Shown here piece by piece: positions 8,456 through 40,104 of a stretch of DNA of 44,930 nucleotides (the stretch's first letter is position 1; each line of letters opens with the position of its first letter). The notes under the pieces were generated by a model. That model had not been told where the DNA came from. It was given only the letters and a program-made list of their open reading frames with translations, and searched no databases. The position numbers and the translations under genes were made by a program. Source of the stretch: Nitrospirota bacterium (GTDB taxonomy: Bacteria; Nitrospirota; JACRHJ01). The stretch is taken from NCBI GenBank assembly GCA_963733375.1, contig CAVTDB010000015.1:1-44930 (forward strand), read 5' to 3'.

Positions 8456-8489
8456 TGAGACGGAGGTGGTGCGAATTTCACTCGTCTCA
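8456..8489. terminator. bulged hairpin at the end of the AT-rich island
   Basis: TGAGACG(G)AG(G)TG-10 nt loop-CACTCGTCTCA, 1 nt after the stop of 8491..8700. Confidence 0.4.
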
Positions 8490-8490
8490 T

Positions 8491-8700: not shown

Positions 8701-8749
8701 GAATGTATCCTCTCTTTATATTTTAGTTGTCTATCGGCCACACAAACTT

Positions 8750-9760: not shown

Positions 9761-9836
9761 AATGGGCCAATCCTTTTGGGTATTGCCTAGCTCATGATTA
9801 AAAATATCATTTAGTATATAAAAAATCTACTTAATT

Positions 9837-10105
9837 GCTCTTAATAGCTCTTCCTGCTTAACCGTACTAAACCATCATCGGTTCACATTTAATTAAAAAA
9901 ATAAAAAAAATCAACAAATTTTCTCCGGTATCGAATTCAGCACATCTCCACGCTCAGCACAATGCATTTTGGGGGGTCTGGGGCCGGTTTTTAAGACGCG
10001 AGTTTTTTGGGTAATGCTAGGGATTTTCACTGTATTTTCATTAGATTACGCCCATATTGCGGCAGATTCCTAAAGTTTGTTTCGCCTTTTGCAAGTCATT
10101 GAAAA
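9837..10105 (-). repeat. ~270-bp six-block element, copy A
   Basis: Six colinear blocks are shared with 27997-28277 in inverted orientation (23/25, 14/18, 30/34, 16/17, 16/18, 16/18 identities). Confidence 0.85.
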
Positions 10106-10186
10106 GTAAGGAATAATTTTAGCGAAAAAATGCGAAAAATGGCCGGATTTCCACTTTTAGGGGAAATTCCGCCAAATTATTGACGC

Positions 10187-11161
10187 TCAGAATGACAGGT
10201 TCATGGCCTTGCGCACTTCATCCATCGTCGCCGCCGCGACCTTGCGGGCGGTATCCGCCCCGGCCCTCAGCATCTCCCGCGTCTCGTCCTCTCGTCCTGT
10301 CAGCGCGGCCCGTTTCTCGCGGAACGGGGCAAGGTAAGTGCTTAATATTTCGGCCAAATAGCCCTTGTGATTCACGCATCCGAGCCTGCCCGCCCGGCAG
10401 TCCACGTCAGCTTGCGGCGCGTCATTTGGCCCGAACGCCTTGTGGTAGTCCTGGACGGAGCATATGTCCGGGTCGCCGGGGTCGTTCGCGTGGATTTTCT
10501 TAGGGTCCGTAATGAGTTGCATCACTTTCGGCTTAATAGATTCCGGCGGCTCGTCCAAAAAAATGGCGTTATTCAATGACTTGGACATCTTCCTGCCGTC
10601 CGTGCCCGGCAGCTTCGGGATCTGTGTCAGGAGCGCCTTCGGTTCCGGAAAAACCTGTTTATACCGATGGTTAAACGCCCTTGCGATTTCTCTGGCAAGC
10701 TCGATGTGCGGGACCTGGTCAACCCCCACGGGCACCGCGCCCGCCTTGTATAGCGTTATGTCCGCCGCCTGAAGCACCGGGTATCCCATCAGGCCGTAGT
10801 TCACGCCGTGTAAGTGCATGTCTTCAATCATGTTTTTTAGCGTCGGGTCACGCTCCAGCCAGGGCATTGGGGTGATCATCCCGAACAGGAGATAAAGCTC
10901 CGCATGTTCCTTCACCTCGGACTGGACGAATACCGTCGAGCGTGAGAAATCGATCCCCAGCGCCCGCCAATCAAGGGCCATTTCCATAATGTTTTTAGGA
11001 AGTTCGGAAGTATCGGCGTATGCGGTGGTCAAGGCGTGCCAGTCTGCGGCCATGAAAAAACATTCATACTCTTCCTGCAATGAGAGCCAGTTGCCGAGCG
11101 CGCCTACAAGGTGCCCGATATGCAGTCTGCCGGTAGGCCGCATCCCGGATAAGAGCCTCAT
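10187..11161 (-). CDS. trpS: tryptophanyl-tRNA synthetase
   Basis: SGMRPTGRLHIGH, YPVLQAADI, VPVGVDQVPHIE, KMSKS. Confidence 0.97.
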   Translation of the reverse strand: MRLLSGMRPTGRLHIGHLVGALGNWLSLQEEYECFFMAADWHALTTAYADTSELPKNIMEMALDWRALGIDFSRSTVFVQSEVKEHAELYLLFGMITPMPWLERDPTLKNMIEDMHLHGVNYGLMGYPVLQAADITLYKAGAVPVGVDQVPHIELAREIARAFNHRYKQVFPEPKALLTQIPKLPGTDGRKMSKSLNNAIFLDEPPESIKPKVMQLITDPKKIHANDPGDPDICSVQDYHKAFGPNDAPQADVDCRAGRLGCVNHKGYLAEILSTYLAPFREKRAALTGREDETREMLRAGADTARKVAAATMDEVRKAMNLSF

Positions 11162-11270
11162 AAACCGTTACCTTTTTGGAAAAAGGTAACGCCAAAAACT
11201 TTTGGGCTGTTTTTAAGCCCCGCTTTTCTTTGTGTTACTTTCTTTTCCCGTGAAAAGAAAGTAACGGTTT
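11162..11270 (+). repeat. double-hairpin intergenic element, copy 2
   Basis: AAACC-GTTACCTTTTTGGAAAAAGGTAAC...GTTACTTTCTTTTC-CCGT-GAAAAGAAAGTAAC-GGTTT; 10-bp terminal inverted repeat. Confidence 0.95.
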
Positions 11271-11275
11271 TATCC

Positions 11276-12943
11276 CTATAATTCAAAATCCCCCGCCTCC
11301 AGGTGCTCCTTTATGCGGTGCAGGAACTCATTCGCAGTCAGGCCGTCCACCACGCGGTGGTCGTAGGAAAGCGCTATATACATCATGGGCCGTATGGCGA
11401 TGGCGTCCTCGCCGTCTTCCGCCGTAACCACCACGGCGCGCTTTACCAGCTCTCCCATCCGGAGTATCCCCACCTGCGGCTGGCTGATTATCGGCGTCCC
11501 GAACAGGTTTCCATGCCTGCCGGGATTTGTCACGGTGAACGTCCCGCCCGCCATTTCGTCGGGAGTTATCTTTTTATCCCGCACTTTTACGGAAAGCTCG
11601 GAGAGCGCCTTTGCCAGGTCCAGCAGGGACATATCCTCCGCGCCCTTTATCACCGGGACCATCAGGCCCCGCTCGGAGTCCACGGCCACGCCCAGATTTA
11701 TATGCCGCTTCGTAAGGACGGAATACCCCTGGACTACCGAATTCATCAGCGGGAATTCCTTCAAGGTCCTGATCGCCGCCGCCATGACGAAAGGCGTATA
11801 AGTCAGGCTGATTCCCACTTCCGCCTTGACTTTATCTTTATTACGCTCTCGTATCCCCACTATATTCTCAAAGTCGGCTTCGGCTATAGTCGTCACATGG
11901 GCCGACGTCCTTTTGCTGTAAACCATGTGGTCGGCGATTAATAGTCTGAGGCGCGAGAACGGAAGCTCCGCATCACCTTCTTCTACTTCATAAGAAGGCG
12001 GCTTATATACCCCGTATCCTGCATGCATTTCAGGCGGGGGGGCCGACTCCAGAAGCTCTTCCTGCACTATCCGGGGCGAAGGCATGTCCTTCTCCGGCGC
12101 GTGGATAGGGCCCCCCGGCGGCACCGTCCTTTCCGGACCCTTCTCCGGTGGCAAAGTCGCTTCCGGCCCGGTCTTTTTCTCCGCGAGCACGCGCATAACG
12201 TCCGCCTTGGTCACCCGTCCGCCTTCGCCGGTGCCTTTAATGGCCTTTAAATCCACGCCATGCTCCATAGCCAGGCGCATTACCGCAGGCGAGTAAAACC
12301 CGGACTTATCAGTCATTGATTCTGGTACTGCCTCAGGCTCCGGGACCTCCCGCTTTATCTCCGGCGGGGGGGTCAACTCCTCTTCGGGCCGGGTTTCCCG
12401 CTTTGCCTCGACGGCAGGGATGCCTTCCGGACGCGCGGGATGCTCCGCCGGGCCGTCTCTTTTTGTCGCCAACTCCGGCGGTTTGCCCTCAACCGTGGTT
12501 TTTGCCTCTGGGGTCTCTTGCGGCGGCGCGGTCTCGACCTTCGCGGTTTCCACCTCCTTGCCGATTTCCGCGCCCGATACTCCTTCAACAGGCTTCATGG
12601 CTCCCGGCTTCACAGGGGCGGCTTCTTCAGTTTTGGCGGCCTCTGGCGTTTCTGGTTTCTTGGGCTCCATAGCTATCGATTTCGGTGCATCTTTCCCCAC
12701 CACAGCCGATTTTTCGTCAATTCTCGCCATCAGCGCTCCCACCTGGATGGTCTCGCCCTCTTTGGCGATTATCTCCGTAAGGACGCCGGAAACGGGCGAC
12801 GGAACGTCCACATCCGCCTTGTCCGTGGAGACCGTCACCAACGGCTCATCGGCCTTTACCGCCTGCCCCTCATCCACCAGCCAGACGGATATCGTCCCTT
12901 CGGCTATGCTCTCCCCCATCTGGGGCATCTTTACGTCGGTCAT
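11276..12943 (-). CDS. 2-oxoacid dehydrogenase E2 (dihydrolipoamide acyltransferase)
   Basis: Lipoyl domain (STDKA), E3-binding domain (GTGEGGRVTK), catalytic SYDHRVVDG. Confidence 0.95.
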   Translation of the reverse strand: MTDVKMPQMGESIAEGTISVWLVDEGQAVKADEPLVTVSTDKADVDVPSPVSGVLTEIIAKEGETIQVGALMARIDEKSAVVGKDAPKSIAMEPKKPETPEAAKTEEAAPVKPGAMKPVEGVSGAEIGKEVETAKVETAPPQETPEAKTTVEGKPPELATKRDGPAEHPARPEGIPAVEAKRETRPEEELTPPPEIKREVPEPEAVPESMTDKSGFYSPAVMRLAMEHGVDLKAIKGTGEGGRVTKADVMRVLAEKKTGPEATLPPEKGPERTVPPGGPIHAPEKDMPSPRIVQEELLESAPPPEMHAGYGVYKPPSYEVEEGDAELPFSRLRLLIADHMVYSKRTSAHVTTIAEADFENIVGIRERNKDKVKAEVGISLTYTPFVMAAAIRTLKEFPLMNSVVQGYSVLTKRHINLGVAVDSERGLMVPVIKGAEDMSLLDLAKALSELSVKVRDKKITPDEMAGGTFTVTNPGRHGNLFGTPIISQPQVGILRMGELVKRAVVVTAEDGEDAIAIRPMMYIALSYDHRVVDGLTANEFLHRIKEHLEAGDFEL

Positions 12944-12967
12944 GGTAAGTTGTTGTCCATGTTCAGG

Positions 12968-13945
12968 TTAATATCCCGCCAGTTTCCGCGCCGCCGCAAG
13001 GACCTTGTCCTTGTTCGGCAGGATGTACTCCTCCATCGGCCCGGCGAAGGCGTTATGCGTATCCTTGCTGCACCACGCGCATTACCGGCGCGTCAAGGTA
13101 CTCGAATGCGTTCTCCATGATTATCGCCGAGACCTCGCCGCCAATGCCCCCGGTAAGCTGTCCTCGTGGACTATCAGCACCTTGCCCGTCTTCTTCGCGC
13201 AGGAGATTATCGCCTGCCTGTCCAGCGGCAGGAGCGTCCGCAAGTCCAGCACCTCGGACGATACCCCTTCCTTCTCCAGTTCTTCAGCCGCCGCGAGGCA
13301 GAGGTAGAGCGCGGAGCCGTAGGTGATGAAGCAGATGTCGTCGCCCTCGCGCCGGAGCGCCGCCTCTCCTATTGGGACGATATAGCTGTCCTCGGGTATA
13401 TCTTCCTTTATGCGCCGGTACAGGAACTTGTGCTCGAAGTAAAGTACCGGGTCGTCGTCCTGTATGGCGGCGATAAGGAGCCCCTTGGCGTCGAAGGCCG
13501 TCGCGGGCGCGACGACTTTAAGGCCGGGCACGCGCGTGAACCAGGCCTCCGGGTTCTGCGAATGGAACAGCCCGCCCCGCACGCCGCTCCCGGACGGGCA
13601 CCGGACCACCATCGGGCATTTGGCCTTCCCGCCGTGCCGATACCGAAGTGTAGCCGCCATGTTCACGATCTGGTCGAACCCGCAGGAGATGAAATCCGCG
13701 AACTGCATCTCCGCCACCGGCCGCATCCCGGCAATGGCAAGCCCGACCGATGCGCCGTTGATAAGAGATTCGGAAATTGGGGTATCGATTACCCGCTCCG
13801 CGCCGAACTCCTCGAACAGCCCCTCCGTTGCCAGAAACGCCCCGCCCAGCGCGGCAATGTCCTCGCCCAGGAGCACGACGTCAGAGTCCAGCCGCATGGA
13901 CTGCCGGAGCGCTTCGTTAATAGCTTTTATGTAAGTCAGTTCCAT
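12968..13945 (-). CDS. 2-oxoacid dehydrogenase E1 beta subunit (frameshifted near the 3' end)
   Basis: GEDI...GGAF, DTPISE, EMQFADF, HSQNPE, FEHK, VLDLRTLLPLD. Confidence 0.93.
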
Positions 13946-13946
13946 T

Positions 13947-14057
13947 AAAACCTTTGTTACTTTCTTTTGCGAAAAAGAAAGTAACCAAAGAAAACGGGAC
14001 AAAAAGACAGTCCAAAAGTTTTTGGTGTTACCTTTTTCCAAAAAGGTAACGAATTTT
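13947..14057 (-). repeat. double-hairpin intergenic element, copy 3
   Basis: GTTACTTTCTTTT-GCGA-AAAAGAAAGTAAC ... GTTACCTTTTTCCAAAAAGGTAAC. Confidence 0.93.
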
Positions 14058-14059
14058 CC

Positions 14060-15028
14060 TCATACCGGCGTCGCATACAGCCCTTCCATCGCCTCCGGGC
14101 CGTCCGGCTCCGGGGAGTTTTCCGCGAATTTCACCGCCTCGTCCACCACCGCCTTCACCTTGGCGCCCGTCTCTTCTATTATCTTCGCCACGTCGTAACC
14201 CTTTTTTTCGAGGAAGAACTCGTAGCGCTGGATGGGGTCGCGGCTTTCCCACTCGATAAGCTCCTCCTTCGCCCGGTACGAGGCCATGTCGTGTTCGCTG
14301 TGGCCGGAGTAGCGATAGGTCTTGCATTCGATCAGTTCCGGCCCCTCGCCCCGCCTCGCCTGGTCGATTGCATGCTCCACCGCGCGCAGGACGGCAAAGA
14401 GGTCGTTGCCGCTGCAGACGTGCCCATGAAAGCCGTATCCGGCCGCCCTGTCCGCCACGTCCTCTACCGCCATCTGAATGGATTGGGGCGTGGAAAAAGC
14501 GTAGAAGTTGTTCTCGCAGACGAAAACGACGGGCAGTTTGCGGACGCCGGCGAAGTTCAGCGCTTCGTGGAAATCGCCCCTGGAGGACGCGCCCTCGCCG
14601 AAGAAGGCGACGACTACCCGCGGCTCTTTCCTGATTTTAAATTTCAAGGCGACGCCGCAGGCGACCGGCAGGGACGAGGCGAGCATGGAGGTGGAGCCGA
14701 CAACGCCGTTCTCCAGGACGCCGGCGTGCAGGAACGAGTCCCTGCCCCCGGAGAAGCCCGTCTTTTTGCCCATTATCTGGGCCATCAGGAGTTTCGGGTC
14801 CACGCCTTTTACGAGGAACGCGCCCAGGTCGCGGTGCAGCGGGAAGATGAAATCGTCGGGCTTCAGCCTATAAACCGAACCGACGACAACGGCCTCCTGA
14901 CCGAGGCCGGAGTAAACGCCGCCCGGTATCTTGCCCTGGTGGTGTAACTTGGAGACCCTGTCCTCAAACTCCCGGACGAGGCGAAGGTGGTAATAAAGCT
15001 CGAGGTCCTGGTCCACACGCCTCCTCAC
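14060..15028 (-). CDS. 2-oxoacid dehydrogenase E1 alpha subunit (TPP-binding)
   Basis: GQEA, FFGEGASSRGDFHEALNFA...ENN, TYRYSGHS. Confidence 0.93.
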   Translation of the reverse strand: MRRRVDQDLELYYHLRLVREFEDRVSKLHHQGKIPGGVYSGLGQEAVVVGSVYRLKPDDFIFPLHRDLGAFLVKGVDPKLLMAQIMGKKTGFSGGRDSFLHAGVLENGVVGSTSMLASSLPVACGVALKFKIRKEPRVVVAFFGEGASSRGDFHEALNFAGVRKLPVVFVCENNFYAFSTPQSIQMAVEDVADRAAGYGFHGHVCSGNDLFAVLRAVEHAIDQARRGEGPELIECKTYRYSGHSEHDMASYRAKEELIEWESRDPIQRYEFFLEKKGYDVAKIIEETGAKVKAVVDEAVKFAENSPEPDGPEAMEGLYATPV

Positions 15029-15519
15029 TCACGCCAATTTAAATCCTTTATTCTTTTTGAGATACGGGACCAGTCCGCCCGCCTCGAGGATATCCGTCAT
15101 AACCTGGGGCATCGGCGGGAACGGCAGCTCGATACCCTTGGTCTTATCCCTTAATACCCCGCCTTAAGGTCCAGCTCGAGCTCGTCCCCGTCGTCTATCT
15201 GGTCGGTATCCACCCGTACAGCCGGAAGGCCGATATTTATGCAGTTCCGGAAGAAAATCCGGGCGAAGGACTTGGCGGCGACACACGAGGTCCCGGCCAT
15301 TTTTATAATCACCGGGGCATGCTCGCGGGAGGAGCCCATGCCGAAATTCGTCCCGCCCACGACGAAGTCGCCGGGTTTTACCTGGGCCCTGAACTCGTCG
15401 CGCGCGTCCTCCAGGACGTGCTTGGTAAGCTCCGGCAGGTTCGTCCTCAAGTACGCGTACCTGCCAGCCGCGATCAAGTCCGTGCTTATATCGTCCCCGA
15501 ACTTCCAGGCCCTTCCCAT
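15029..15519 (-). CDS. leuD: 3-isopropylmalate dehydratase/homoaconitase-family small subunit (frameshifted)
   Basis: [40 protein letters not shown]. Confidence 0.85.
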
Positions 15520-15530
15520 GGAACCTCCAG

Positions 15531-15640
15531 ACCGTTACCTTTTTGGTAAAAAGGTAACGCCAAAAACTTTTAGGCTGGTTTTAATTGTCCCGCTTTTCTT
15601 TGTGTTACTTTCTTTTCCCGTGAAAAGAAAGTAACGGTTT
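15531..15640 (+). repeat. double-hairpin intergenic element, copy 4
   Basis: Near-identical to 11162-11270. Confidence 0.95.
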
Positions 15641-16898
15641 ATATATATTTTCTTGGGTCGGCAAGCTTCCCTTCGATGGCGGAGGCCGCGACAGCGCGGG
15701 CGAGGCAAGGTAAACGAACGACTTGGGGTTTCCCATCCTGCCCTTGAAGTTCCGGTTTATGGAGGCGGCGCAGTTCTCGCCGTCGCCCAGGATACCTTCA
15801 TGGCTTCCGGGGCATGCCCCGCATCCCGGCGAATTGATTACGCCGCCCGCATCCAGGAATATATCCATAAGACCTTCGGCCATCATCTTTCTATAGACGC
15901 TCTTGGTGCCCGGGGTTACGACGAGCCTTGAGCCGGGGGCGACATGCTTTCCCTTGAGTACCTTGGCCGCCGCCTCGAAATCCTCGAAATAACCGTTGGT
16001 CGTGGAGCCAAGGTACGCCTGCTGGATCGGGACGTCCTTGCAGTCCGGGTGCGAGATGGGCCTCGTGTTGTCCACCATGTGGGGGAAAGAGACCATCGGC
16101 TCAAGGCTGACCCGCGTCTATCTTGACTACCCTGACGTATTTCGCGCCGGGGTCGCCCTTTATCTCCTTGAAATCCTTCTCCCGCTTGTTCTCGCGGAGC
16201 CAGTCCAGGGTATGCCCGTCCGATTCGAACAGGCCGCACTTCCCGCCGGCTTCCACGGCCATCGACGAAATAGTGGTCCTTCCGGGGATGGATAACCCCT
16301 CGATGGTATCTCCGAAGAACTCAAGGGACTGGTATGTCGCGCCGTCCGCGCCGATTAAGCCGATAAGGTAGAGGATGATGTCCTTGGAATATACCCCCGG
16401 CGGGAGCTTCCCGGTGACTTCCACCCGGATTGCCTCCGGGCACAGCATCCAGGTCTCGCCGGTGGCCATGGCGACCGCGATGTCCGTCGAGCCCATGCCG
16501 GTTGCGAAGGCCCCCAATGCGCCGCCCTGGCAGGTATGGGAGTCCGCCCCGACCATCAGCATGCCGGGGGACGTGACCTGCTCGCCCAGGACCAGGTGGC
16601 TTACCCCTCCCCCTATGTCGGAGAGCATGCAGCCGGAGTCCTTTGCGTACTCGCGGAGCTTGGTGTGCCCGGTGGAGACTTCCTTGAAGGAAGACGGGGA
16701 GGCGTGGTCTATGAATACGGCGGTATGGGAGGGGACTTTTGCAAGTCCCGCTCCCAGCTCCGCAATCTTGTCAACCGTCAGGGGGCCGGTCCAGTCCTGC
16801 ACGTAGGCGAAATCCACCTTCACCACGGTCAGCTCGCCTGCGTGTACCTCGTGCCCCGCATGCATGGAGATAAGTTTTTCAGCCAGGGTCAGCGGCAT
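15639..16898 (-). CDS. leuC: 3-isopropylmalate dehydratase/homoaconitase-family large subunit (frameshifted)
   Basis: TLAEKLI, GADSHTC.GGALGAFATGMGSTD, GATY, PGCGAC, NRNFKGRMG, YLASP; ends DPRKYI-TAA. Confidence 0.85.
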
Positions 16899-16902
16899 AT
16901 TC

Positions 16903-17518
16903 TTACGCCGCCCTTCCCAGGGCCTCATCCAGTTTCAGGGATGTCTGAAGGCGCTTCTCCACCACGTTCCAGTCTATGTTCTGGAAGAACGCGTCTAAGG
17001 TATGCCGCGCGCTTTACGCCGTAGTCTATCATGTAGGCGTGCTCGTAGACGTCCAGTATCAGAAGCGGGATCTCATTCCAGATAGCACCGATATCGTGCA
17101 TATCCATCATGTAGTTGTGCAAAGTGTTGTCGTTCATGCTCCAGGAGAGCACGGCCCAGCCGCGTCCGGACATTCCGACCGCCTTGAACTGCGCCATCCA
17201 GTTATCGAACGAACCCCAGCGCTCTTTTATCATCTCTGCTATCCTGCCGCCCGGCGCGCCTCCCTTGCCGCCAAGGTTCTCGAAATACCACTCGTGCAGA
17301 AAAACGGCGTTTGTCGTAAAGGACTTCTCCTTGAACATCTCCCGGATAATGGCGTAAGTGGCGTTTGCGCCTTCGGTCGGCGCTTTTTTTATCTCTTCCT
17401 CAAGCATGTTCAATTTATCCACGTATCCCTTATAGAGCACGTCCCTGTGCTCCTGGATCTGCCTGTCGGAAATACCCTTGAGTTTACCTTCCAGCTTGAA
17501 TTCCTTTACCTTGTGCAT
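16903..17518 (-). CDS. Fe/Mn superoxide dismutase family protein (frameshift near the 3' end)
   Basis: QEHRDVLYKGYV, LHEWYFENL, WGSFDNW, PLLILDVYEHAY..DYG, NIDW. Confidence 0.9.
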
Positions 17519-17602
17519 GATTGTACCGTCCTTTCTAATACGCGAGGCTAAGACAAAAAAGAAATGCGGCAAAGATTATGCCGCAGGCGGCCGACTTCAA
17601 AA

Positions 17603-17630
17603 AGTATAACAAAGATTTAAGCAGTGTCAA
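17603..17630 (-). promoter_or_regulatory. sigma70-type promoter of the SOD-leuCD-E1/E2 run
   Basis: TTGACA-16 nt-TATACT with an extended TGn. Confidence 0.6.
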
Positions 17631-17761
17631 TTTTGTAGAACAATTTTAAGTATTTTGATTAACCGGCGCGACTTGCGGACGGTAAAAGTCCGTGGTATAA
17701 ATTTATACAAAGGAATTTATTTTTACTGAAGGGTAAATTTGGCCGCCCTGAAGGAGACTTT

Positions 17762-19253
17762 ATGGAGCATAACCTCAAAATCAAGAGCCAGGAAGTATAT
17801 GACAGGAACCTGCTGGAGGCGAGCCTCGACCCGATCGTGGCGATAAACCTGGAAGGCAAGTTCACCTACGTCAATGAGGCTATGGTAAGGATCACGGGCA
17901 TTCCGAGGGACGCCCTCATCGGGTCGGACCACTTCGGCATCTTAACCGAGCCCGAAAAGGGGAAAGAGGGCCTTCTGCAGGCTTTAACGATAGGGTCCAT
18001 CACCGACTATCCCCTCACCTTCCGGCACACGGACGGGCACCTGACGGACGCACTTTGCAACGCCTCCGTTTACTTGGATGACGAGGGCAAAGTCGCCGGC
18101 ATCTTCGCGGCGGTGAGAGACATTACCGAGAGAAAACGGGCCGAAGAGGCCCTTCGAGAGGCCGGGGCATACACCAGGAGCCTGCTGGAGGCGAGCCTCG
18201 ACCCGCTCGTGGGGATAAACCTTGAAGGCAAGTTCACTTTCGTCAATGAGGCTACGGTCAAGGTCACGGGCGTTCCGAGGGACGCCCTGATAGGGACGGA
18301 CTTCGCCAGCTACTTCACCGAGCCCGATAAGGCGAGAGAGGACTTCCAGCAGGCTTTAGCGACAGGGTCCGTCACCGACAATCCCCTCACCATCCGGCGC
18401 AAGGACGGGCACCTGACGGACGCACTTTGCAACGCCTCCGTCTACCGCGATACAGGGGGCAAAGTCGCCGGCATTTTTGCCGCCGCACGCGATATAACGG
18501 AGAGGAAGCGGGCGGAAGAGGAGGTAAAAAAATTAAACCTGGAGCTGGAGCAGAGGATCCGCGAACGGACGGCCCAGTTAGAGTCCGCCAACTGCGAGCT
18601 GGAATCCTTCAGCTACTCGGTCTCCCACGACCTCCGCGCGCCTCTTCGGAGCCTGGACGGCTTTTCCCAGGCCATCCTGGAGGAATATTCGGACAGGTTA
18701 GATGAAAAAGGGAAAGACTACCTGGGAAGGATCCGCCTTGCCAGCCAGAGGATGGGCCATCTTATAGACGACATGCTGAAGCTCTCCCGGGTGACAAGGA
18801 GTGAGATGCGTTTTGAAAACGTGGACCTGACGGGGATTGCGAGAGAAATAGGAGATGAACTGAGGAGGGCGGAGCCCGGGCGCAAGGTCGAATTTATCAT
18901 AGAAGATGGCGTCACGGCATGGGGCGACTTGCCGCTCATGCGGACGGTTATGCAGAACCTGCTGTCGAATTCCTGGAAATTCACATCCAGGCACGAGAAG
19001 GGGGTAATCCAGTTCGGCGTCTCGGAGATGGGGGGCAAGAAAATTTATTTCGTGAAGGACGACGGCGCCGGTTTTGACATGAACTATGCCGACAAACTTT
19101 TTACCCCATTCCAGCGGCTGCATTCCACGGCGGAGTTTCCGGGGACGGGTATCGGCCTCGTAATCGCAAAAAGGATTATTAAGGCGGCACGGGGGCGACA
19201 TCTGGGCTACGGCCGAAACCGAAAAAGGGGCGAACTTTTATTTCTCATTTTGA
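17762..19253 (+). CDS. PAS-PAS sensor histidine kinase (frameshift near the 3' end)
   Basis: Two near-duplicate PAS/PAC repeats, FSYSVSHDLRAPL H-box, NLLSNSWKF, DDGAGF, GTGIGL. Confidence 0.93.
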
Positions 19254-19265
19254 AAGGGGGCAGAT

Positions 19266-19729: not shown

Positions 19730-21717
19730 GGCATTGATAGTGGAAGACTCGGAAGACGACGCTATCTTAATGGCGGAGGAACTCCGGCGCGCGGGGTATG
19801 AGGTCTATTTCGAAAGGGTCGAGACGCCGGAAGAAATGTCCGCGGCCGCCTCTGAGAGGGGGCTGGGACGTCATACTCTCGGATTACGTAATGCCCCGGT
19901 TCGACGGCCTGACGGCGCTTAAGCTCCTGAAGGAAAAGGGCCTCGACATCCCCTTCATCCTGGTTTCCGGAAAGATAGGCGAAGACACGGCTGTAGAAGC
20001 CATAAAGGCCGGGGCCTGCGATTATGTCATGAAGGACAGGATGATAAAGCTCGCGCCCTCGGTGAAAAAGGCCCTTTCCGAGCACGAGATGATGATGGAA
20101 AGGGACCGGGCGCAGGAGGCGTTGAAGACGGAGCTGGAGGTATCCAACGCCCTGCTCAAGATGGCCGAGATAACGAGCGCATCCCTTGACTGGGACGAGA
20201 CGGCGGATAAGGTGCTTCACGTCCTGAAGGGGATTATACATTTTGAGGGCGCGGCCGTAATGCTGGCGGAGGCGGACGGCACGCTGACCCCCAGGAAAGC
20301 GGTAGGTTGCGACGGCGGCATACATTCCATTTTGATGGGGATGCGGCCAAGGCTGGCGGACGTCCGGGCGCTCGAGAAGGTGATGTTGACCAGGAAGCTT
20401 TTAAAAATCGGGGAAGAGGAGCTGCCCGGCCTCATCCCGGATTATATCGCGGCAAACCTGAAGCTCAAGGAAGTGATTATCGCACCCGTTATGGCGAGGG
20501 AGCGTGTAGCCGGCTTCCTGGGGGTGAACTTTAAAAAAATCGGCGACGATTCACGCGTCCCGGCCTTGATAAAGGGCATCGCGGACCAGCTCGGCGCGGC
20601 CTTTGAAAATGCCAGCCTCTACGAGGAGACCCAGAAGAAGAGGCTGGAGCTGGCCAAGGGGATGGAGGCGCTCAGGGTACTGCATGAGATAGACAGGATG
20701 ATACTGTCCACTCTCGACAGGGACGAGATGCTGTCAAGGGTCTCGCTGCAGATAAAAAGGCTTATCCCGGCGGATGCGGGGTGCCTGTTGCTGCTGGACG
20801 GGGAGGAGAAGACGCTTAGGGTAAACTGCGGCTGGGGGGCGGACTTTAAAAAAGACGAGCGGTTCATGCTGGACGGCTTCCCCGGCGCCGATACGTTCCT
20901 TTCAGGCAGGCCGGTGATGAGGGCCGACGTCCTGAACGAGACGAGGGAAAGCGGGGAGGATACCGTCTTTCGGGACGCGGTAATCCGTTCCGAGATAATC
21001 GTCCCGATAATGAGCAAGGGGACCGGACGGGGGCTTATCAGGCTCGGGAGCCAGAGGGTGGCGGGTTTCAGTTTCGAGGATACGGCGATGGCTGAAAAAC
21101 TGGCGTACCAGATAGGGATAGCGCTTGAGAACACGCGCCTGATAGCAGACCTGGAGGAGGTGCTGATAAACACCGTCCAGGCGCTTTCCTCCGCGATAGA
21201 CGCAAAAAGCCACTGGACGCGCGGACATTCCACCCGCGTCACGGGCTATGCCGTGCGGGCCGGAAAAGAGATGGGCCTTACGGACGAGCAGATGGAGAGG
21301 CTTAAGCTAGCTGGCCTTCTGCACGATATCGGGAAAATCGGGATATTGGATGCATTACTGGACAAGCCGGGCGCGCTGACGATTGATGAGTACGAATCGA
21401 TTAAAAAACACTCCGACAGGGGGGCGGAGATACTCGCGCCTATAAGGCAGTTCAGGGATATCGTACCCTGCATCCGCCACCACCACGAGCGTTGGGACGG
21501 CAAAGGCTATCCCCTTCATCTGCAGGGCGAACAGATACCTTTCATGGCACGGATATTATCGGTCGCGGACTCTTTCGACTCCATCACCGCCGACAGGCCT
21601 TACAGGAAGGCCAATGACAGGAACTTTGCTTTCGAGGAGCTTATGAAATGCTCGGGGACGCAGTTTGAGCCGAAGGTCGTGGACGCTTTCATCAGTATGC
21701 TGAAGGAGCCCGATTAG
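19713..21717 (+). CDS. receiver-GAF-GAF-HD-GYP c-di-GMP phosphodiesterase (frameshift near the 5' end)
   Basis: LIVEDSEDD, SDYVMPRFDG, LLHDIGK, HHERWDGKGYP, RPYR. Confidence 0.92.
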
Positions 21718-22022
21718 CCGGCGTCTTTCTTTTCTTCTATCTCCGTTATTTTAATCCCGTCTTTAAAAAGAAAAGACTTCATTTCCTTCGCGAAAGCGGG
21801 GTCGTTTCGCCGCACCCACTCAAGGAGCATCGCCGCGTGTTCCTTCTCCTCGTCCCGGTTATGGGCGAGGATACTCTTAAGTTCCTCGTCCTCCGTCGCG
21901 TCCACCCGCTGCTGGTACCAGTCTATCGCTTCCAGTTCCTCCACTATCGACCGAAGCGCCCTGTGTAGCTCTTTTGTCTTGCCGGTCAGCTTATCTTCGT
22001 TTTCATGCAACAGGTATGGCAT
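21714..22022 (-). CDS. encapsulin-associated-type ferritin-like protein (EncFtn/Flp family)
   Basis: HRALRSIVEELEAIDWYQQR...HNRDEEKEHAAMLLEWVRR. Confidence 0.88.
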   Translation of the reverse strand: MPYLLHENEDKLTGKTKELHRALRSIVEELEAIDWYQQRVDATEDEELKSILAHNRDEEKEHAAMLLEWVRRNDPAFAKEMKSFLFKDGIKITEIEEKKDAG

Positions 22023-22111
22023 GTGAGGGGGCCTCCTTTTCCTTTCAATTATAGCAGACGCTATGCCGGATTATTGTTTTTATTGAGGTAAGGTGTTATT
22101 ATCCGGCTTAT

Positions 22112-23379
22112 ATGGAACAGCTTCTGGAAATAATAAAAGAAGAAATCCGGACGGAGGGAAGGATAACCTTCGAGCGCTACGTGGAACTTGCGCTCTATCA
22201 TCCCCGGTACGGCTACTACTCGTCCGGGGCGGCCTCCATTGGCAAGAACGGGCGATTTCTATACCTCCTCGCAGGCCACCCGCATGTACGGGACGCTGAT
22301 GGCCGAAGTCTATGTAAAGCTCGCGGGGAAGTCAGGGCCGGATTTTGTTGAGATGGGTGCGGGAGAGGGGCTGTTCGCGGCCGATTTCCTGCGCGCGCTT
22401 TCTAAGTCCCATCCCCTCGAATATGGAAGATGCCGGTATTTTATAGTGGAGAGCGCAAAGGGCATGGCGGCAAGACAGAAGGATGCGCTTTCAGATTTTA
22501 GTGACAAAGTTACCTGGACCGAGGACTTAGACGGCCTGCCCGATATAGAGGGAATATTTTTTTCAAACGAACTGGTCGATGCGTTCCCTTTCCACAGGGT
22601 TAAACAGGGTCCGGACGGGCTGTCCGAAATTTACGTGTGCCTGCAAGGGGGGTCAGAGTGGACAAGCGGGGCAAGCTGGGCAGGGGACGCAACGGGGGCC
22701 GGATGAGAAACTGGCCTTTGTGACCGGGCCGCTCTCCACGAAGGCACTGGCGAAGCATTTCAACCGGCTGATGCCGAGGCTGCCGGCGGGGATGATAACC
22801 GAGGCGAACCTCAGGGTTTCCGAGTGGATGGGCAAGGTCGGCGGGAAGCTGAAGAAAGGTTTTGTTATCACGGTGGATTACGGGTATACCGCGGAGCAAT
22901 ATTACTCCCCCTCAAAGATGAACGGCACCGCGCTCTGCCATTACAGGCATTCAACCAACGAAGACTTTTTCGAGCGGGTCGGGGAGCAGGATATTACCGC
23001 GCACGTTGACTTTACCGCCGTCAGCCTCGAAGGGGAAAACAGCGGCCTCGCCCCGGAGCTTTTCTGTGATCAGGGACAGTTCCTCATGGAAACGCTGCCG
23101 TGGTTCGAGGACTCAGCCAGGCGTACAAATGCGTCTTTGGATGAGCTTATAGAGGCGGGGCAGGGAATAAAAACATTGCTCCACCCGGAATGGCTGGGAG
23201 GGGCGTTCAAGGTCCTGGTCCAGTCAAAGGAGTGTTCCCTGGACGGATTATTCGGGAGGATACGGAACAGGGTGGACAGCCTGCTGAAGCCCCTGAAGTT
23301 AAGCGGACTACGGCCTGCGAAGTTTATCTGCTCGCCCGGTAATATATGGATGCCGCGCCGGCGAGGGATTTTCCTTTGA
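22112..23379 (+). CDS. MidA/NDUFAF7-family SAM-dependent methyltransferase (frameshifted)
   Basis: ITFERYVELALYHPRYGYY, GDFYTS, EMGAGEG, SNELVDAFP, DYG, QDITAHVDF. Confidence 0.88.
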
Positions 23380-24076
23380 AATCCAGGCGGTGCGACCACT
23401 TGACCTGCCTGAGCCCGGCCATCTCCAGAAGGTTCAGCATCTCCGGTATCTTAAAGCAGTTGACCTCGAAAGCCTGGTCGTAGTTCTCCTTTACGAAATG
23501 TCCCTTCATCAGGACGGTCCCTTTATCTTCCAGAAGCTCCCGCTCCCAGATGACCGATATCTCGCCGGAGGCGTCCCGCACTATGATATTTTTGAAGAAG
23601 GGCTGAGACCAGTAGACCGCGTTGAAGACGAATGCGCCTCGCGGGGCAAGGAGCCTGCGGACCCTGTCGAAGACCACCACCAGCTGGCTTCTTTTGAGCT
23701 GGGATACCGTGTTGCCGAGACTTATGACAAGGTTCTGGATCCCGTAAGGCACCAGGCTGTCGTTCTCTATGTCGGAGAGGTGGAACTCCACGTTTGGAAT
23801 CGCCGCCGCTTTTTCTTTAGCGGCGTTAAGCGCGGCTTCCGTCCGGGCCAGGCCGGTCACGGTAAAGCCGTTCCGGGCAAGGGCAATGGAATGAAGGCCC
23901 GGCCCGCATCCCAGTTCCAGAACGCGGCCCCCCCCGGGCGGCCGGCCGGCCGCTTCCCAGGTTTTTTTATACCAGAAAAGGATTTGCTCTACTTCGGCCT
24001 TTTCTTCTCCGTTCGAGTGATGGGTCTGCTCGAAAAGGTCCACCCGTTCCCTGTTTATTTTCAAAGACTCAGCCAT
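23324..24076 (-). CDS. class I SAM-dependent methyltransferase
   Basis: VLELGCGPG, RRLLAPRGAFVF. Confidence 0.85.
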   Translation of the reverse strand: MAESLKINRERVDLFEQTHHSNGEEKAEVEQILFWYKKTWEAAGRPPGGGRVLELGCGPGLHSIALARNGFTVTGLARTEAALNAAKEKAAAIPNVEFHLSDIENDSLVPYGIQNLVISLGNTVSQLKRSQLVVVFDRVRRLLAPRGAFVFNAVYWSQPFFKNIIVRDASGEISVIWERELLEDKGTVLMKGHFVKENYDQAFEVNCFKIPEMLNLLEMAGLRQVKWSHRLDFKGKSLAGAASIYYRASR

Positions 24077-24088
24077 ATACCCCTCTTT

Positions 24089-24196
24089 AAACCGTTACTT
24101 TTCTTTCGCGAGAAAGAAAAGTAACCAAAAGAAAGCGGGACATAAAAACAGTTTAAAAGTTTTTGGTGTTACCTTTTTCCAAAAAGGTAACGGTTT
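24089..24196 (-). repeat. double-hairpin intergenic element, copy 5
   Basis: AAACCGTTACTTTTCTTTC...GAAAGAAAAGTAAC ... GTTACCTTTTTCCAAAAAGGTAACGGTTT. Confidence 0.95.
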
Positions 24197-24206
24197 TCCC
24201 GCCATC

Positions 24207-24989
24207 TTAAGCCGCGGCCCGGTAGCCCCATTTCATGAAATGGTCTTCCGTCCCTATCTCTCCCGACAACTCGTCCGACTGTTCCGACGCCAGAAAAACC
24301 GCCAGCTTCGCTACCTCGGACGGCTGCTTTAACTGGCCGGATTTTTTAAGGCCCCAGAAAACCCGGTATGCGTCCGGTCCCAGCACGTTCATGTCCAGCT
24401 TACGGATGTCGTCGTGCATCCTGGTGTCCACGGAGCCCGGGTCCATCCCGTAAACTTTAATATTATACGGTTCTAGCTCCCGCGCCAGCGCCTTCGTCAG
24501 CGCGTTCAGCCCCGATTTAGATATGCTGTAGGCGCCCAGACGCGGAATAACGAAGTCAGCCAGGCCTGAAGTAATGTTTATTATCTTGCCGTAGCGTTTT
24601 TTAATCATCCCCGGGATGCACGCCTTCGACACGAGCCATGCGCCGGTAAGGTTAATATCCATGCAGCGGTGGAACTCGGGGTCGGGAATATCCTTCATGG
24701 GGGCTATGGGGCCGGTTATCCCTGCGTTATTCACCAGTATGGAAGGCGGGCCGAACTTCATCTCCACCGCACGGTAGAGGTTCTTTACGTCCCCCGGGTC
24801 GGACACGTCCGCTTTTATCGCGATGGCTTGCCCGCCCTTGTCCGCAATAATGGAAACCGTATCTTCCAGTTCCTCCCTGGTCCTGGAAGCAACCGCCACT
24901 TTCGCGCCAGCCTCAGCCAAGGCTATGGCAATTGCGCGCCCAAGACCCCGCCCGCCGCCGGTTACGACAGCAATCCGCCTTTTGAGCAC
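24207..24989 (-). CDS. short-chain dehydrogenase/reductase
   Basis: TGGGRGLG, NNAG, YSISK; GAGGAGG RBS before GTG. Confidence 0.92.
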   Translation of the reverse strand: MLKRRIAVVTGGGRGLGRAIAIALAEAGAKVAVASRTREELEDTVSIIADKGGQAIAIKADVSDPGDVKNLYRAVEMKFGPPSILVNNAGITGPIAPMKDIPDPEFHRCMDINLTGAWLVSKACIPGMIKKRYGKIINITSGLADFVIPRLGAYSISKSGLNALTKALARELEPYNIKVYGMDPGSVDTRMHDDIRKLDMNVLGPDAYRVFWGLKKSGQLKQPSEVAKLAVFLASEQSDELSGEIGTEDHFMKWGYRAAA

Positions 24990-25107
24990 GCGCACCTCCT
25001 CTTCGGCTGATGAAAATGGGAAAAAAGGGGACCGCAGAAAGTTCCCCCCATTCAAATAATAATCGAGCGGGGGCGACTTGTCAAAAAAGGGGGGAAAAGG
25101 GGGGAAT

Positions 25108-26203
25108 TTATTTAATCTCGATTTCGGCTTCGGAAACTTTTACCGGCTCCGCGCTCTTTGCCGGTATCCCTAACTTCGCGGCCGCGGCGGGGGTAACCAG
25201 CCGGTAATAAAGGGCGGCCTTAGCCTTCGCCGCACCTTTCGGCAGGTCGTATGTCAGCGCCCGCTCCTCGTGGTCTTTTATCCTTGAATCAAGCGCCTCT
25301 TTCGCCTCCCAGGTCGGCACGCCGACCTTGCCGTCCGCGCTGAATACGCGCATGAACAGGTCTTTCTGGCCGGCCGCGGGGGCGGGGCTCTCGAAGAGGG
25401 GCTTTCCCTCTTTATCGAGGACTACAACTTTCAGATATGCCGCACGCATCGGGTTCGTGGACGGGAAGAAGTGCGGGTTATCGTTTTTGATGATTACTAT
25501 CAGCTTCCCCATCTCCGCACCCAGGGAAAGGGATATCCCTTTCTTCAGCATCTCTTTATCATGTCCGCCCGGGAAAAAGTGGGAGTAGTGCGAGCTTTTA
25601 GCCGAGCCTTCGGCGGGCGGGCCCGCTTTTTCTTCCATGTGGCACTTGACGCAGTTTGAGTATCCTTCCAGGTCCGCGCTGCATATTACCGTCCCTTTGC
25701 CGTTTACCATCTTGCCGTGGCAGCCAAGGCACATCATGAACGGCTGAGCGAACGACCACTGGCTTACCTTGTGCGGCGCCTCTTGCGCCGAAGGAGCGGT
25801 TATGGTGGTGGCGAGGTTGTAGGTGTTGAACATTTTCCCTTCCGAAACGCCCTCGACGCCGTGGCAGAACGTGCAGGGTATGCCTGGCATTGGCGAATAG
25901 GTCGTTTGCCATGGCTTCCGACGCGGGGTTATGACAGCTTGCGCAGAAATAGGGCGCTTTTTTGCCCGTTTTGGCCATAGCCTGGGAAAATGCGGAGAAG
26001 ACGGCGTTGTGGGCGGGATCGGAGGCCCTGGACGACTGCGCGTGCATGGACGCGCCCCACTCGTCATAGATGGTCTTATGGCACGGGGCGCAAGAGGCCG
26101 AATCCGCAAAACCCTTGAATCCCGCCGGGTACTGGTGCGCAAATGCCCCGGAAGGCAGGATTGCCAGAAAAATAAAAGCCAACAGGATTTTGCCCGCCCT
26201 CAT
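25108..26203 (-). CDS. exported multiheme (5 CXXCH) cytochrome c (frameshifted)
   Basis: Signal peptide; CAPCH, CASCH, CTFCH, CLGCH, CVKCH; SHFFPGGH. Confidence 0.88.
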
Positions 26204-26479
26204 CCTTCGGTCTCCTCCTCAGCCTGTATCTTTACCTGGTCGCCGGGGCGGACCATCTCCTTGAACTCGGGCATGACCTCCGCCGCGAGCGCGTAGTAGC
26301 TGCGCTGGTTCTTGATGAACCTGTCGGAGGTCTCGTCGTAGACCTTGTCGAAGAGGGTCGAGCCGCATGTCGGGCAGGTGATAACCGCATGGCCCCTCTC
26401 GTCATAAGCAGAGATAGGACATGACGTGCGCTCCGCAGAGCCTGCACGGTGTTATAATAAGTTCCGGGCATGTAGTCAT
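26200..26479 (-). CDS. small zinc-ribbon-like protein (one frameshift; missed by the ORF track)
   Basis: Reconstructed MTTCPELIITPCRLCGAHVMSYLC/YDERGHAVITCPTCGSTLFDKVY...EEETEG; its TGA overlaps the cytochrome ATG (ATGA). Confidence 0.6.
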
Positions 26480-26577
26480 AACTTGAAGTCTATCACGAAA
26501 AAAAATCAGGTTCAACGACAAATAATCTTTCTTGCCATATAAAAATGTGGTATTTGATAGATAACCATGGTTGAACA

Positions 26578-27920
26578 ATGAATAATTTTTCTCCTGATTT
26601 CACATTCTGGGCGGCGGTGATTGTTTTCGCCGTCACTTACGGCCTCATTATCACGGAGCTCGTGGACAGTACCGCCGCCTCGATCTTCGGCGCGGTACTC
26701 ATGCTTGCCCTGGGGGTGCTGGGGCAGGACGAGGCGTTCCATGTCCGGGAACTGGGGGTGGACTGGAACGTGATATTCCTGCTGGTCTCGATGATGGCGC
26801 TTATCGCGATGATGAAGCCCTCCGGGATATTCGAGTACGTGGCGATAAGGAGCGCGAAACTGGGCCGGGGCGACCCCGCGAAGATACTATATATTCTTGC
26901 CGTCCTGACGGCGCTTGCCAGCTCGCTCCTGGATAACATTACGACTGTACTCCTCCTGATCCCGGTAACCATGTTTATCGCGGATGCTTTGGAAGCGGAC
27001 GCAATCCCTTTTCTGCTGACCGAGGCGTTCGCATCCAATATCGGCGGGACCGCGACCCTCATCGGAGACCCGCCCAACATCATGATCGCCTCAAGGGCCG
27101 GCCTTTCGTTCATGGATTTTTTATACAACCTCGCCCCGGCGGTAATCGTGATAATGGCCGGGTTCCTGCTCGTGATAAAGGTCATCTTCGGCAGGGGCCT
27201 GCACGCATCGGAAGATGTGCGGGCGCGGATTATGGCGATGGACGAGCCGCGGGGCCATAAAGGACAAGGCGCTGGCGATAAAATCTGTACTCGTGCTGGC
27301 CCTGGTGCTGCTGGGGTTTATTTTTCAGGGGAAGCTGGGGTATGAGCCCGCGACGGTCGCGCTATTCGGGGCGGGGCTTCTCCTGCTAATCACGGGGAAG
27401 CGGGATATGCACAAGCTCCTTTCCGGGATTGAGTGGCCGACGATATTTTTCTTCATCGGGCTCTTTATTATCGTGGGCGGGGCGGTAAAGGTAGGGTTTA
27501 TAAAATGGCTCTCCAGCGAAATGCTGCACGCCACCGGAGCTAATATGTTAAAGGCCTCGATGCTCGTGATGTGGTTTTCGGCGGGGATTTCCGCGTTCAT
27601 CAATAACATCCCGTTTGTGGCCGCAATGAACCCGCTTAGTCGAGGATATGGCAAAGCAGCTCCTGCCCGGCGCGGCGGTGCACGAGGCGGTAAGGAACCC
27701 ACTTATAATGCCGGTATGGTGGTCGCTCGCGCTTGGGGCTTGCCTGGGCGGGAACGGCACGGCGATAGGCGCGTCCGCCAACGTCATAGTCTTCGACATA
27801 TCGAAAAGACATAGAAAAAAGATAAGCTTCCTTCGGTTCATGCTGTACGGGATGCCGGTGACGTTGATGTCGGTAGGGATAGCGGCGCTGTATGTGTGGG
27901 TGAGGTATTTCGTATTTTAG
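26578..27920 (+). CDS. ArsB/NhaD/CitMHS family ion transporter (frameshifted)
   Basis: LDNITTVLL, SNIGGTATLIGDPPNIMI, INNIPFVA, LGGNGTAIGASANV. Confidence 0.92.
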
Positions 27921-27943
27921 CGGAACGCATCGACAGCTGTTTA

Positions 27944-27959
27944 TTTTCCACGTGGAACG
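27944..27959. other. parS-like palindrome
   Basis: TTTTCCACGTGGAACG is 14/16 to TGTTCCACGTGGAACA. Confidence 0.4.
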
Positions 27960-27996
27960 TTGAAAATCAGTTCAGGCCGCGTGAAAACACCTTTAA

Positions 27997-28277
27997 TTTT
28001 CAGTGACTTGTAAATTGGGCAACACGATTTTCCACGCCGCAAAAATTGGCCGCAAAGTGGGCGTAACCATATGTAAAACAAGGGTAAAAATACCGCCGGC
28101 CCATTAAAAACAGACGCCTCCAAAACCCATCCCGGACCCCCCAAAATCGCCGCATTTGCCCTGAAGACCCCCCATGAATTCGATACCGCATGAAATTCGT
28201 TGATTTTTCCATTTATATATGGATAAATGTTGACGGACGATTACTTGGCCGATTAAGCAGGAATAGCTATTAAAAGC
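27997..28277 (+). repeat. ~280-bp six-block element, copy B
   Basis: Colinear inverted homolog of 9837-10105. Confidence 0.85.
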
Positions 28278-28290
28278 CGGGAGGAAAGTT

Positions 28291-30032: not shown

Positions 30033-30039
30033 AGAAGAG

Positions 30040-40101: not shown

Positions 40102-40104
40102 TTT

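Follow-up and report, generated by a model that had tools for sequence, protein, structure and literature searches.

The window analysed here is the whole of contig CAVTDB010000015.1 (44,930 nt) of the Nitrospirota metagenome-assembled genome (MAG) GCA_963733375.1. It contains two copies, A and B, of a non-coding sequence, each followed by foreign-looking genes, which raises the question of what this sequence is and why such genes lie at its 3′ end. A preliminary description of the window had regarded the two copies as a duplicated leader-like unit of ~270 bp heading an unrecognised capture or expression platform. We found that they belong to a dispersed family of ~350-nt elements. Our preferred interpretation, held tentatively and at somewhat less than an even chance, is that the element is a DNA-level repeat maintained by selection and that genes are gained and lost, independently of a recombinase, at a polar hot spot formed by its 3′ edge.

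The element family

The window's own assembly (G000, of which the window is contig C15) comprises 2.39 Mb in 26 contigs, is 81% complete and has a G+C content of 0.55. Its genus (g1) is represented by three genomes (G000, G001 and G002), with completeness values of 97%, 94% and 81% among them, and a sister genus (g5) of the same family is represented by five, including G006 and G009.

First, 9780-10190 (minus strand) was aligned with 27915-28300 (plus strand) using MAFFT. The conserved blocks were colinear; all six blocks of the preliminary description were recovered, and the alignment contained a single 10-column gap. Copies A and B also matched each other in a blastn search inside the genome (E=2e-14, 70% identity over 241 nt). 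When an iterated nhmmer profile of 355 positions was searched against G000, 20 near-full and 5 partial copies of the non-coding element were detected. What had been taken for a duplication is accordingly a family, and the unit reaches ~70 nt 5′ of the first block described before. Copy A lies at 9836-10154 on the minus strand (profile 27-353, E=1.9e-57), with a degenerate 5′ part extending to ~10180, and copy B at 27929-28279 on the plus strand (profile 3-354, E=8.2e-79). A structure-free covariance model (CM), built from 16 copies and used to search 41 genomes (12 of the family and 29 of other families), placed them at 9833-10158 (E=8e-50) and 27929-28282 (E=3.9e-66), respectively.

In the family alignment, the element begins with the A/T-rich sequence AAATAAATA...TTTATTAA and consists of about a dozen short conserved blocks, between which the spacers are free in sequence and nearly fixed in length. 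Its 3′ end is sharp (...AGCAGGAAGAGCTATTAAGAGC). The terminal block (...AAGCAGGAATAGCTATTAAAAGC) occupies 28253-28279 (+) in copy B and has its counterpart at 9836-9861 (-) in copy A; family conservation ends here. Beyond this point the copies are unrelated, and the downstream sequences of 43 copies were mutually unrelated. The two ends of the element match each other weakly, at 9 of 13 positions by eye only.

Turnover of DNA at the 3′ edge

Subsequently, orthologous loci were compared within the genus. For G002 versus G000, we used 17 ten-kb loci of G002 having a counterpart in G000 and scored unmatched segments of at least 200 nt; for G001 versus G000, 15 loci were compared using high-scoring segment pairs of at least 80% identity and at least 200 nt. 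In the pairwise alignments, homology crossed the element and broke off 0-25 nt past TATTAAGAGC. An unmatched segment began no more than 60 nt from the 3′ end at 11 of the 17 G002 loci; one further segment began at 299 nt, and one further locus carried an insertion on the G000 side. In the remaining ~173 kb, 11 other unmatched segments were found. Homology was likewise lost after the 3′ end at 13 of the 15 G001 loci, and the flanks of the compared loci were ~82-98% identical. These results show that the DNA at the 3′ end of the element is replaced, inserted and deleted far more often than other DNA of the same regions.

Changes in synteny also fell at copies of the element. DNA that is contiguous in G000 (C1:48252-53901 and C26:70290-70481) was split between two loci of the sister-genus genome G009 (L173 and L174), each half being joined to a different copy, an arrangement that looks as if two copies had recombined. 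When G000 C3:9771-17613 was compared with G002 L057:6529-6889, G002 lacked the element behind the DAHP synthase gene together with 7.4 kb containing four co-oriented genes. Only the last ~15 nt of the last of these genes were retained in G002, which points to a deletion.

Cargo of the slots

The preliminary description had expected further copies to head variable genes. Indeed, a profile scan and a tabulation of the downstream genes showed variable, foreign-looking genes past the 3′ end, some of them defence genes. The G+C content was 0.31-0.42 in 9 of 12 cargo segments, compared with 0.55 for the genome. Among the defence genes were a bSEFIR gene (PADLOC, 1.6e-109), an AIPR abortive-infection gene and a likely restriction-modification (R-M) remnant. 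The cargo also comprised a nucleotidyltransferase (NTP_transf_2), an ImmA/IrrE-HTH gene, DUF4760 and DUF3800 proteins, secreted proteins with Ig-like or CarboxypepD_reg-like domains and numerous orphans.

In the window, the slot of copy A (8413-9835, minus strand, G+C 0.37-0.39) contains one orphan open reading frame (ORF) of 336 aa (8750-9760), for which no match was found in Pfam, PADLOC or NCBIfam. Homology resumes at 8412, and G002 has ~950 nt of unrelated DNA in this slot. The first cargo of copy B (28291-30062) consists of two converging genes, an orphan ORF of 200 aa (28291-28893, +) and an N6/N4 DNA methyltransferase gene in two overlapping ORFs (28856-30062, -). The two are likely an R-M remnant, a decaying type II-like pair, in which the 200-aa ORF would be a candidate endonuclease by its position alone. 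This cargo is also found in G002, at 89% identity. A second insert of the same slot (30084-35043, minus strand, G+C 0.42-0.51) encodes a short-chain dehydrogenase/reductase (SDR), an FAD-binding oxidase, a UbiA prenyltransferase and a TPR protein; it is specific to G000 and absent here in G002. In G001, a copy at a contig end lies only 826 nt from DNA matching 35038-36587 of the window. From this spacing, the content of slot B would seem to vary among the three genomes, at 0.8, 1.8 and 6.8 kb.

Recognition of the element as DNA or RNA

Two of the blocks had been described as one-mismatch binding sites of integration host factor (IHF). The motif WATCAANNNNTTR, used here as the IHF consensus, was present with at most one mismatch around model position 80 in 15 of the 20 near-full copies and, on the opposite strand, around position 290 in 12 of them. 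Its density was 2.1 per copy versus 0.54 in shuffled sequences. The first of these blocks lies at 10088-10105 (-) in copy A (TTTTCAATGACTTGCAAA) and at 27997-28014 (+) in copy B. The motif is enriched and positioned in the family; the first block of copy B has two mismatches rather than one.

Both genera share a C-rich, G-poor zone of ~90 nt at model positions 150-240, in which the C>G skew reaches 0.54; the composition at positions 181-210 is C 0.33 and G 0.10. Its core in copy B is the block at 28117-28147 (+; CCTCCAAAACCCATCCCGGACCCCCCAAAAT). Among the most conserved blocks of the family is an AT-rich near-palindrome, CATTTAT-ATATGG-ATAAATG (28210-28229, + in copy B; palindrome by eye). In the sister genus, copies L157-L166 of G006 and L172 of G009 carry a conserved 3′ extension of ~100 nt, TATTGACAATGAACTTCCCCGACCGATTAGATTTACT...AGTAAAT...AAAGTCAAC, which is followed by further short repeats of the type GGATTCTTCGGC...GGAATGACAG. 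By eye, the extension contains a TTGACA-like hexamer and a hairpin, TTTACT/AGTAAA, with one compensatory variant.

A structured non-coding RNA, for which the preliminary description had suggested a test, was not borne out. RNAalifold predicted 0 pairs on 20 copies, and the mean z-scores of the minimum free energy (20 copies, 12 shuffles each, both strands) were near zero (+0.20 sense, -0.07 antisense). Local hairpins of at least 5 bp were enriched ~3-fold at four places, yet they were present in only 9-15 of 40 copies. In Rfam searches of copies A and B, the best E-values were 1.1-8.8, far below gathering level. Among the public sequencing runs, no RNA run was found for this DNA. We also rejected a small peptide, since the ORFs opened by a conserved ATG ahead of the C-rich block run from 3 to 30 or more codons in differing frames, and a pairing of anti-Shine-Dalgarno/Shine-Dalgarno type in which the C-rich block would bind the purine-rich 3′ block, for which no compensatory pattern was seen by eye. 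The conservation of blocks with free spacers, the placed IHF-like motifs and the AT-rich near-palindrome would fit recognition of the DNA by proteins.

Position relative to upstream genes

The context of the 20 near-full copies in G000 was surveyed using a crude ORF caller. In 13 of them, a co-oriented upstream ORF ended between -28 and +34 nt from the projected 5′ end of the element. Copy B is a fourteenth such case because the caller missed the ORF at 27648-27920. Housekeeping Pfam families were found in 9 of 10 tested upstream genes, in addition to a synthetase gene. The upstream genes are mutually unrelated: ribulose-phosphate epimerase, SpoU methylase, MoCF protein, NikR, DAHP synthase, RidA, lipoate ligase, GH3 hydrolase, ROK kinase, FMN reductase and, at copy A, a class-I Trp/Tyr tRNA synthetase of 324 aa (10187-11161, minus strand; PF00579, E=1e-63) with its stop ~7 nt before the projected 5′ end. 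Both copies had been said to lie just after the stop of a core gene, which holds for copy A. Copy B follows a broken CitMHS-type transporter gene in three overlapping frames (26578-27920, plus strand), ending 8 nt before the element; this stretch is unmatched at the position in G002 and is therefore not core.

At two sites where G009 has the element and G000 does not, the G000 gene has an intrinsic terminator after its stop codon, while in G009 the element begins 18 nt past the stop at the one site and at a displaced stop at the second. The element usually occupies the space where the terminator of the gene would be, in the orientation of the gene.

This position raises the alternative that the element is a transcribed 3′-untranslated region (3′-UTR) module, either a portable Rho-dependent terminator with a Rho utilisation (rut) site or an unstructured protein-binding or sponge RNA, with the ext hairpin or the hairpin of g5 as its end. 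A start 0-35 nt past co-oriented stops leaves no space for another terminator, in G009 the element sits where G000 has intrinsic terminators, and the 90-nt C>G zone, unstructured and lying after a stop codon, is in keeping with a rut site, for which ~80 nt of C-rich, G-poor, unstructured RNA would be expected. An A-tract/GGGA-TCCC hairpin/T-tract motif 10-11 nt past the 3′ end in five copies and the compensatory variant seen by eye in the g5 hairpin point in the same direction. On the other hand, about one third of the g1 copies and about half of the g5 copies have no co-oriented gene in front, a rut site needs neither 350 nt nor a dozen sequence-specific blocks, and the turnover at the 3′ edge is left unexplained. 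We therefore consider a 3′-UTR module unlikely.

Recombinases, partial copies and cargo junctions

A platform of the attI or CRISPR (clustered regularly interspaced short palindromic repeats) leader type would be expected to have a linked Cas1 or integrase; such a platform was part of the earlier proposal. No tyrosine recombinase (PF00589) was found within 10 kb of any listed copy in G000, G001, G002, G006 or G009, or anywhere on the window contig. An integrase 15 kb from the C9 copy was rejected as a linked recombinase, since the intervening DNA has normal G+C content. Short regularly spaced repeats, as expected after a CRISPR leader, were not seen after copy A or B (cas genes were not searched for). 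The statement that no CRISPR array, integrase or transposase adjoins the two copies was thus corroborated, and a platform with a linked Cas1 or integrase was not supported. Y1 transposase (PF01797) and TnpB (PF07282) were each found in 0 of 3 genomes of the genus and IS110 in 0 of 12 genomes of the family; the element is accordingly no eroded insertion sequence (IS) end of these known types. Resolvase (serine recombinase) genes occurred in 2 of the 12 family genomes and rve genes in 6, neither following the distribution of the element.

The few mobile-element genes of G000 form two clusters with no element copy nearby: three adjacent tyrosine-recombinase genes at C17:49560-51914 and, at C3:186119-196855, a resolvase gene accompanied by two genes with rve domains (781 and 424 aa).

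At six loci, the 3′ part of the element is locally duplicated. Each of the six partial copies is closest to the adjoining full copy (0.74-0.93); they start at differing model points (58, 166, 211, 245, 248 and 305), and 0-545 nt separate full from partial copy. Cargo junctions were varied. The cargo of G001 L323 is bounded by a ~55-nt imperfect duplication of the 3′ end of the neighbouring gyrA gene and the C9 insert by an 18-nt repeat, and in L061 the terminal block recurs as a 13-nt copy at the distal cargo end. In 13-14 of the 17 cargo segments, the repeats were of 18 nt or less or absent, and 11 distal cargo junctions had no common motif.

These duplications bear on the alternative that the element acts like a tRNA gene as an attachment site (attB), with integrative islands attaching at its 3′ part; the cargo would then be decayed islands and the 3′ partial copies att duplicates. 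Partial copies with an intact 3′ end behind a full copy at six or more loci, the terminal-block copy of L061 and the sharp 3′ boundary are what such attachment would leave. The truncation points of the partial copies differ, though, and only 0-545 nt lie between full and partial copies. Likewise, the lack of PF00589 near the copies of five genomes, the serine recombinases in only 2 of 12 genomes and the normal-GC surroundings of the integrase near the C9 copy argue against it. An attB role is accordingly improbable in our estimation.

The 20-nt motif TGGGATGTGTCCCTAATTTT, preceded by an A-tract, has eight sites in G000; it was noted at G000 C18:4922-4941 and 483-502, C22:2303-2322, C3:275898-275917 and C1:60850-60890, in G002 L056, L062 and L068 and in G009 L168. 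In five copies it stands at +10/+11 after the element. It forms the A-tract/GGGA-TCCC hairpin/T-tract arrangement and recurs in either orientation at, or close to, the distal end of some cargo segments. The motif is identical in two genera. It would be more simply explained as a small bidirectional terminator-like hairpin than as the terminal inverted repeat (TIR) of a transposon.

Distribution and age of the family

With the CM, the numbers of matches were 25, 32 and 27 for the three members of genus g1 and 9-35 per genome for all five members of the sister genus. Four other genera of the family gave none, and the 29 genomes of other families gave a single weak match (E=1e-4). A viral or wider-phylum origin was considered when a two-block pattern matched viral contigs (23) as well as over 100 contigs of genomes, and was rejected since the profile confirmed only 9 of these loci; all nine come from two Nitrospirota MAGs, and the remainder are chance matches in AT-rich DNA.

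Paralogous copies in G000 are 49-72% identical (mean 59%), and all 16 G000 copies tested have an ortholog at the same position in G002. Orthologous copies were mutual best matches in nearly all quarters of the element, the last quarter being the most conserved (0.81-0.96), and exchange between paralogous copies was for this reason rejected as the main route. Between the genera, only the sites behind the synthetase, SpoU and DAHP-synthase genes are common (5 of the 20 upstream flanks from the sister genus or L076 for which a match was found); the remaining flanks correspond to adjoining genes without an element in G000. The linkage of the synthetase gene to the element was also seen in L075, L076 and L164. 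Since few sites are common to both genera, copies of the family changed place or were lost differentially in the distant past.

The only case of presence and absence with 94-95% identical flanks was G001 L323 versus G000 C11:12524/12492. The copy in question is at most 69% identical to any other copy, and no TIR or target-site duplication (TSD) was seen in this single empty/occupied pair. In G001, two contigs, L316 (C90) and L321 (C59), each hold a SpoU gene with an element, and the two copies are 80% identical; this pair points either to a mixture of strains in the MAG or to a duplication there. Taken together, the comparisons indicate that the family is old, restricted to its lineage and not mobile at present.

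This bears on a further alternative, in which the element is a promoter and leader driving the cargo or else a still-moving non-autonomous transposon, such as a miniature inverted-repeat transposable element (MITE), a palindrome-associated transposable element (PATE) or an omega-RNA type. The g5 terminal block reads TATTGACA followed by a TAGATT-like hexamer (by eye), AGGAAAAAAT(A/G)TG follows the element in some copies, and the sites differ between the genera. However, copies A and B have no sigma-70-like site in common on the sense strand, the first ORF of the cargo runs with the element in ~6 G002 slots and against it in ~5, and several downstream genes appear by eye to have their own TTGACx/TAxxxT promoters past the element, so that the common expression leader proposed earlier finds no support. 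Nor does the end of a currently mobile, cargo-delivering element: no pair of paralogs exceeds 72% identity, the polymorphic copy stays at or below 69%, orthologs keep their own 3′ quarter while the cargo changes, and neither Y1 nor TnpB in the genus nor a TIR or TSD at the empty/occupied pair was seen. We regard this alternative, in either form, as very improbable.

By eye, candidate promoters of sigma-54 (GG-N8-GC instead of N10), sigma-28 and extracytoplasmic function (ECF)-like (GAAAA-N15/16-CGTAAC) types could also be picked out.

Possible causes of the turnover

A platform heading variable foreign cargo thus stands as a pattern, although not as a CRISPR-leader, attI or transposon-end mechanism. 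The element marks ~25 small gene slots per genome. In the interpretation stated at the outset, it would probably also be a cause of these slots and would function at the DNA level, as a module bound by protein at multiple sites, with IHF-like bends in two places and an AT-rich core that is palindromic. The 3′ edge would be a polar, recombination-prone site at which foreign DNA joins and is lost. Joining would proceed without a recombinase, by illegitimate joining or by insertion with target duplication, after transformation or fork breakage, and no linked integrase or transposase would take part. The capture mechanism is suggested by genome comparison, and active capture of DNA by the element stays a proposal. 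A stronger version, in which a nucleoprotein complex on the blocks directs breakage or joining exactly at the 3′ edge, is in our judgement doubtful. The element would then be a cis-acting polar landing pad, spread by an ancient mobile repeat, and the ~25 dedicated slots of the chromosome would take up and shed foreign genes, defence genes often among them, while encoding no recombinase on the spot.

We give a similarly low probability to the opposite alternative, that the element is a passive bystander. It would be an intergenic module conserved as a terminator, an insulator or some other signal in cis, or else a selfish repeat that died long ago. The DNA from there to the next promoter would vary because it is dispensable, with indels building up as far as the functional edge of the element. 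The boundary would then be only the end of conservation, and the missing linked recombinase, the mixed orientation of the cargo, the scarcity of flanking repeats and the unchanged slots are as a bystander would have them. It does not readily account for 11 of 17 and 13 of 15 loci differing though their flanks are ~82-98% identical, for just 11 other unmatched segments in the remaining ~173 kb, for the duplicated 3′ part at six loci or for the synteny breakpoints at copies.

Several points weigh against the hot-spot interpretation itself. The sharp boundary could merely mark the edge of a selected element beside dispensable DNA, and the post-stop position, the co-orientation and the ~90-nt C-rich zone fit a transcribed 3′-UTR or terminator role as well. 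The slots at lepA, C16 and C26_481284 are unchanged between G000 and G002; the R-M remnant beside copy B is retained in G002, the G000-only insert lying farther on. Flanking direct repeats exceed shuffled controls in only 3-4 of the 17 cargo segments, and none of the six recombinase families tested shares the phyletic pattern of the element. The IHF consensus is degenerate. The controls for turnover were the flanks of the same loci and not a genome-wide matched set, and the label "recombinogenic" derives from patterns seen on comparing three MAGs of a single genus, which may be chimeric.

Comparison with known systems

Repetitive extragenic palindromic (REP) sequences and bacterial interspersed mosaic elements (BIMEs) of enterobacteria, including the IHF-binding RIP and RIB types, are palindromic units of 35-150 nt present in hundreds of copies after the 3′ ends of genes or operons, and they have been reported as sites of illegitimate recombination and IS targeting. 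The element resembles them in being dispersed and extragenic, in lying at gene 3′ ends and in carrying an IHF-type motif (binding is predicted only). Unlike them, it is 350 nt long and non-palindromic, has ~25 copies of fixed polarity and a dozen distinct blocks, and forms no stable hairpin.

In Neisseria, intergenic mosaic elements (NIMEs) are arrays of short RS units between 20-bp dRS3 repeats, and minimal mobile elements are strain-variable accessory genes between conserved genes, exchanged without linked mobility genes in a transformable host. The slots described here are similarly repeat-marked intergenic sites between conserved genes with differing accessory genes, whereas each has one long unit with a single sharp polar edge in place of the NIME array. 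IHF-type motifs also occur in CRISPR leaders and att sites. Like attI, CRISPR leaders and tRNA or tmRNA genes, the element is conserved and non-coding, and new DNA accumulates on one side of its sharp edge; unlike the attI and leader systems, it has no integrase nearby, no attC-like or CRISPR repeats and mixed cargo orientation, and it occurs at ~25 sites and not in one array.

Hot spots of defence and accessory gene turnover are known in several bacteria and are usually defined by flanking core genes, the route of DNA entry being unclear. A literature search turned up no account of an element of this kind, either in Nitrospirota or at hot spots of defence genes.

A precedent for insertion without a recombinase is known for R-M genes, among others, as insertion with long target duplication: low-GC inserts without mobility genes are flanked by direct target repeats of 30-400 bp, which often overlap the 3′ end of a gene (Furuta, Abe and Kobayashi 2010, PMC2853133). 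The patterns seen here resemble it, in the ~55-nt duplication at G001 L323 and in the duplicated 3′ parts of the element at six loci. In contrast to that phenomenon, which has no dedicated target element, the insertions here concentrate at one repeated element, and most lack repeats beyond chance.

One recognisable non-coding element thus tags ~25 slots per genome in an uncultured soil lineage with almost no transposases. It offers a sequence handle for finding slots in metagenomes, for measuring turnover and for testing whether a cis-element makes DNA prone to recombination. If the element is causal, it would represent a new route of gene capture, and the landing pad, if true, a chromosomal gene-capture system of a new kind; if it is not causal, the copies still form a new family of bacterial intergenic repeats that is well delimited and unusual in its architecture.

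Other features of the window

A second family of dispersed intergenic repeats was found in the window, consisting of paired palindromes of the types GTTACCTTTTTGGAAAAAGGTAAC and GTTACTTTCTTTTC...GAAAAGAAAGTAAC in both orientations (6633-6736, 11163-11270, 13945-14059, 15531-15640, 24079-24200, 36124-36220, 40097-40216 and 41531-41635). These are probably REP-like terminators. Tandem paralogous gene segments lie at 1907-2901 and 3772-4766; they are 70-93% identical and 1865-1867 nt apart. The sole gathering-level Rfam match in the window was a molybdenum/tungsten cofactor (Moco) riboswitch, RF01055, at 41687-41832 (+), with 41.9 bits against a gathering score of 36.

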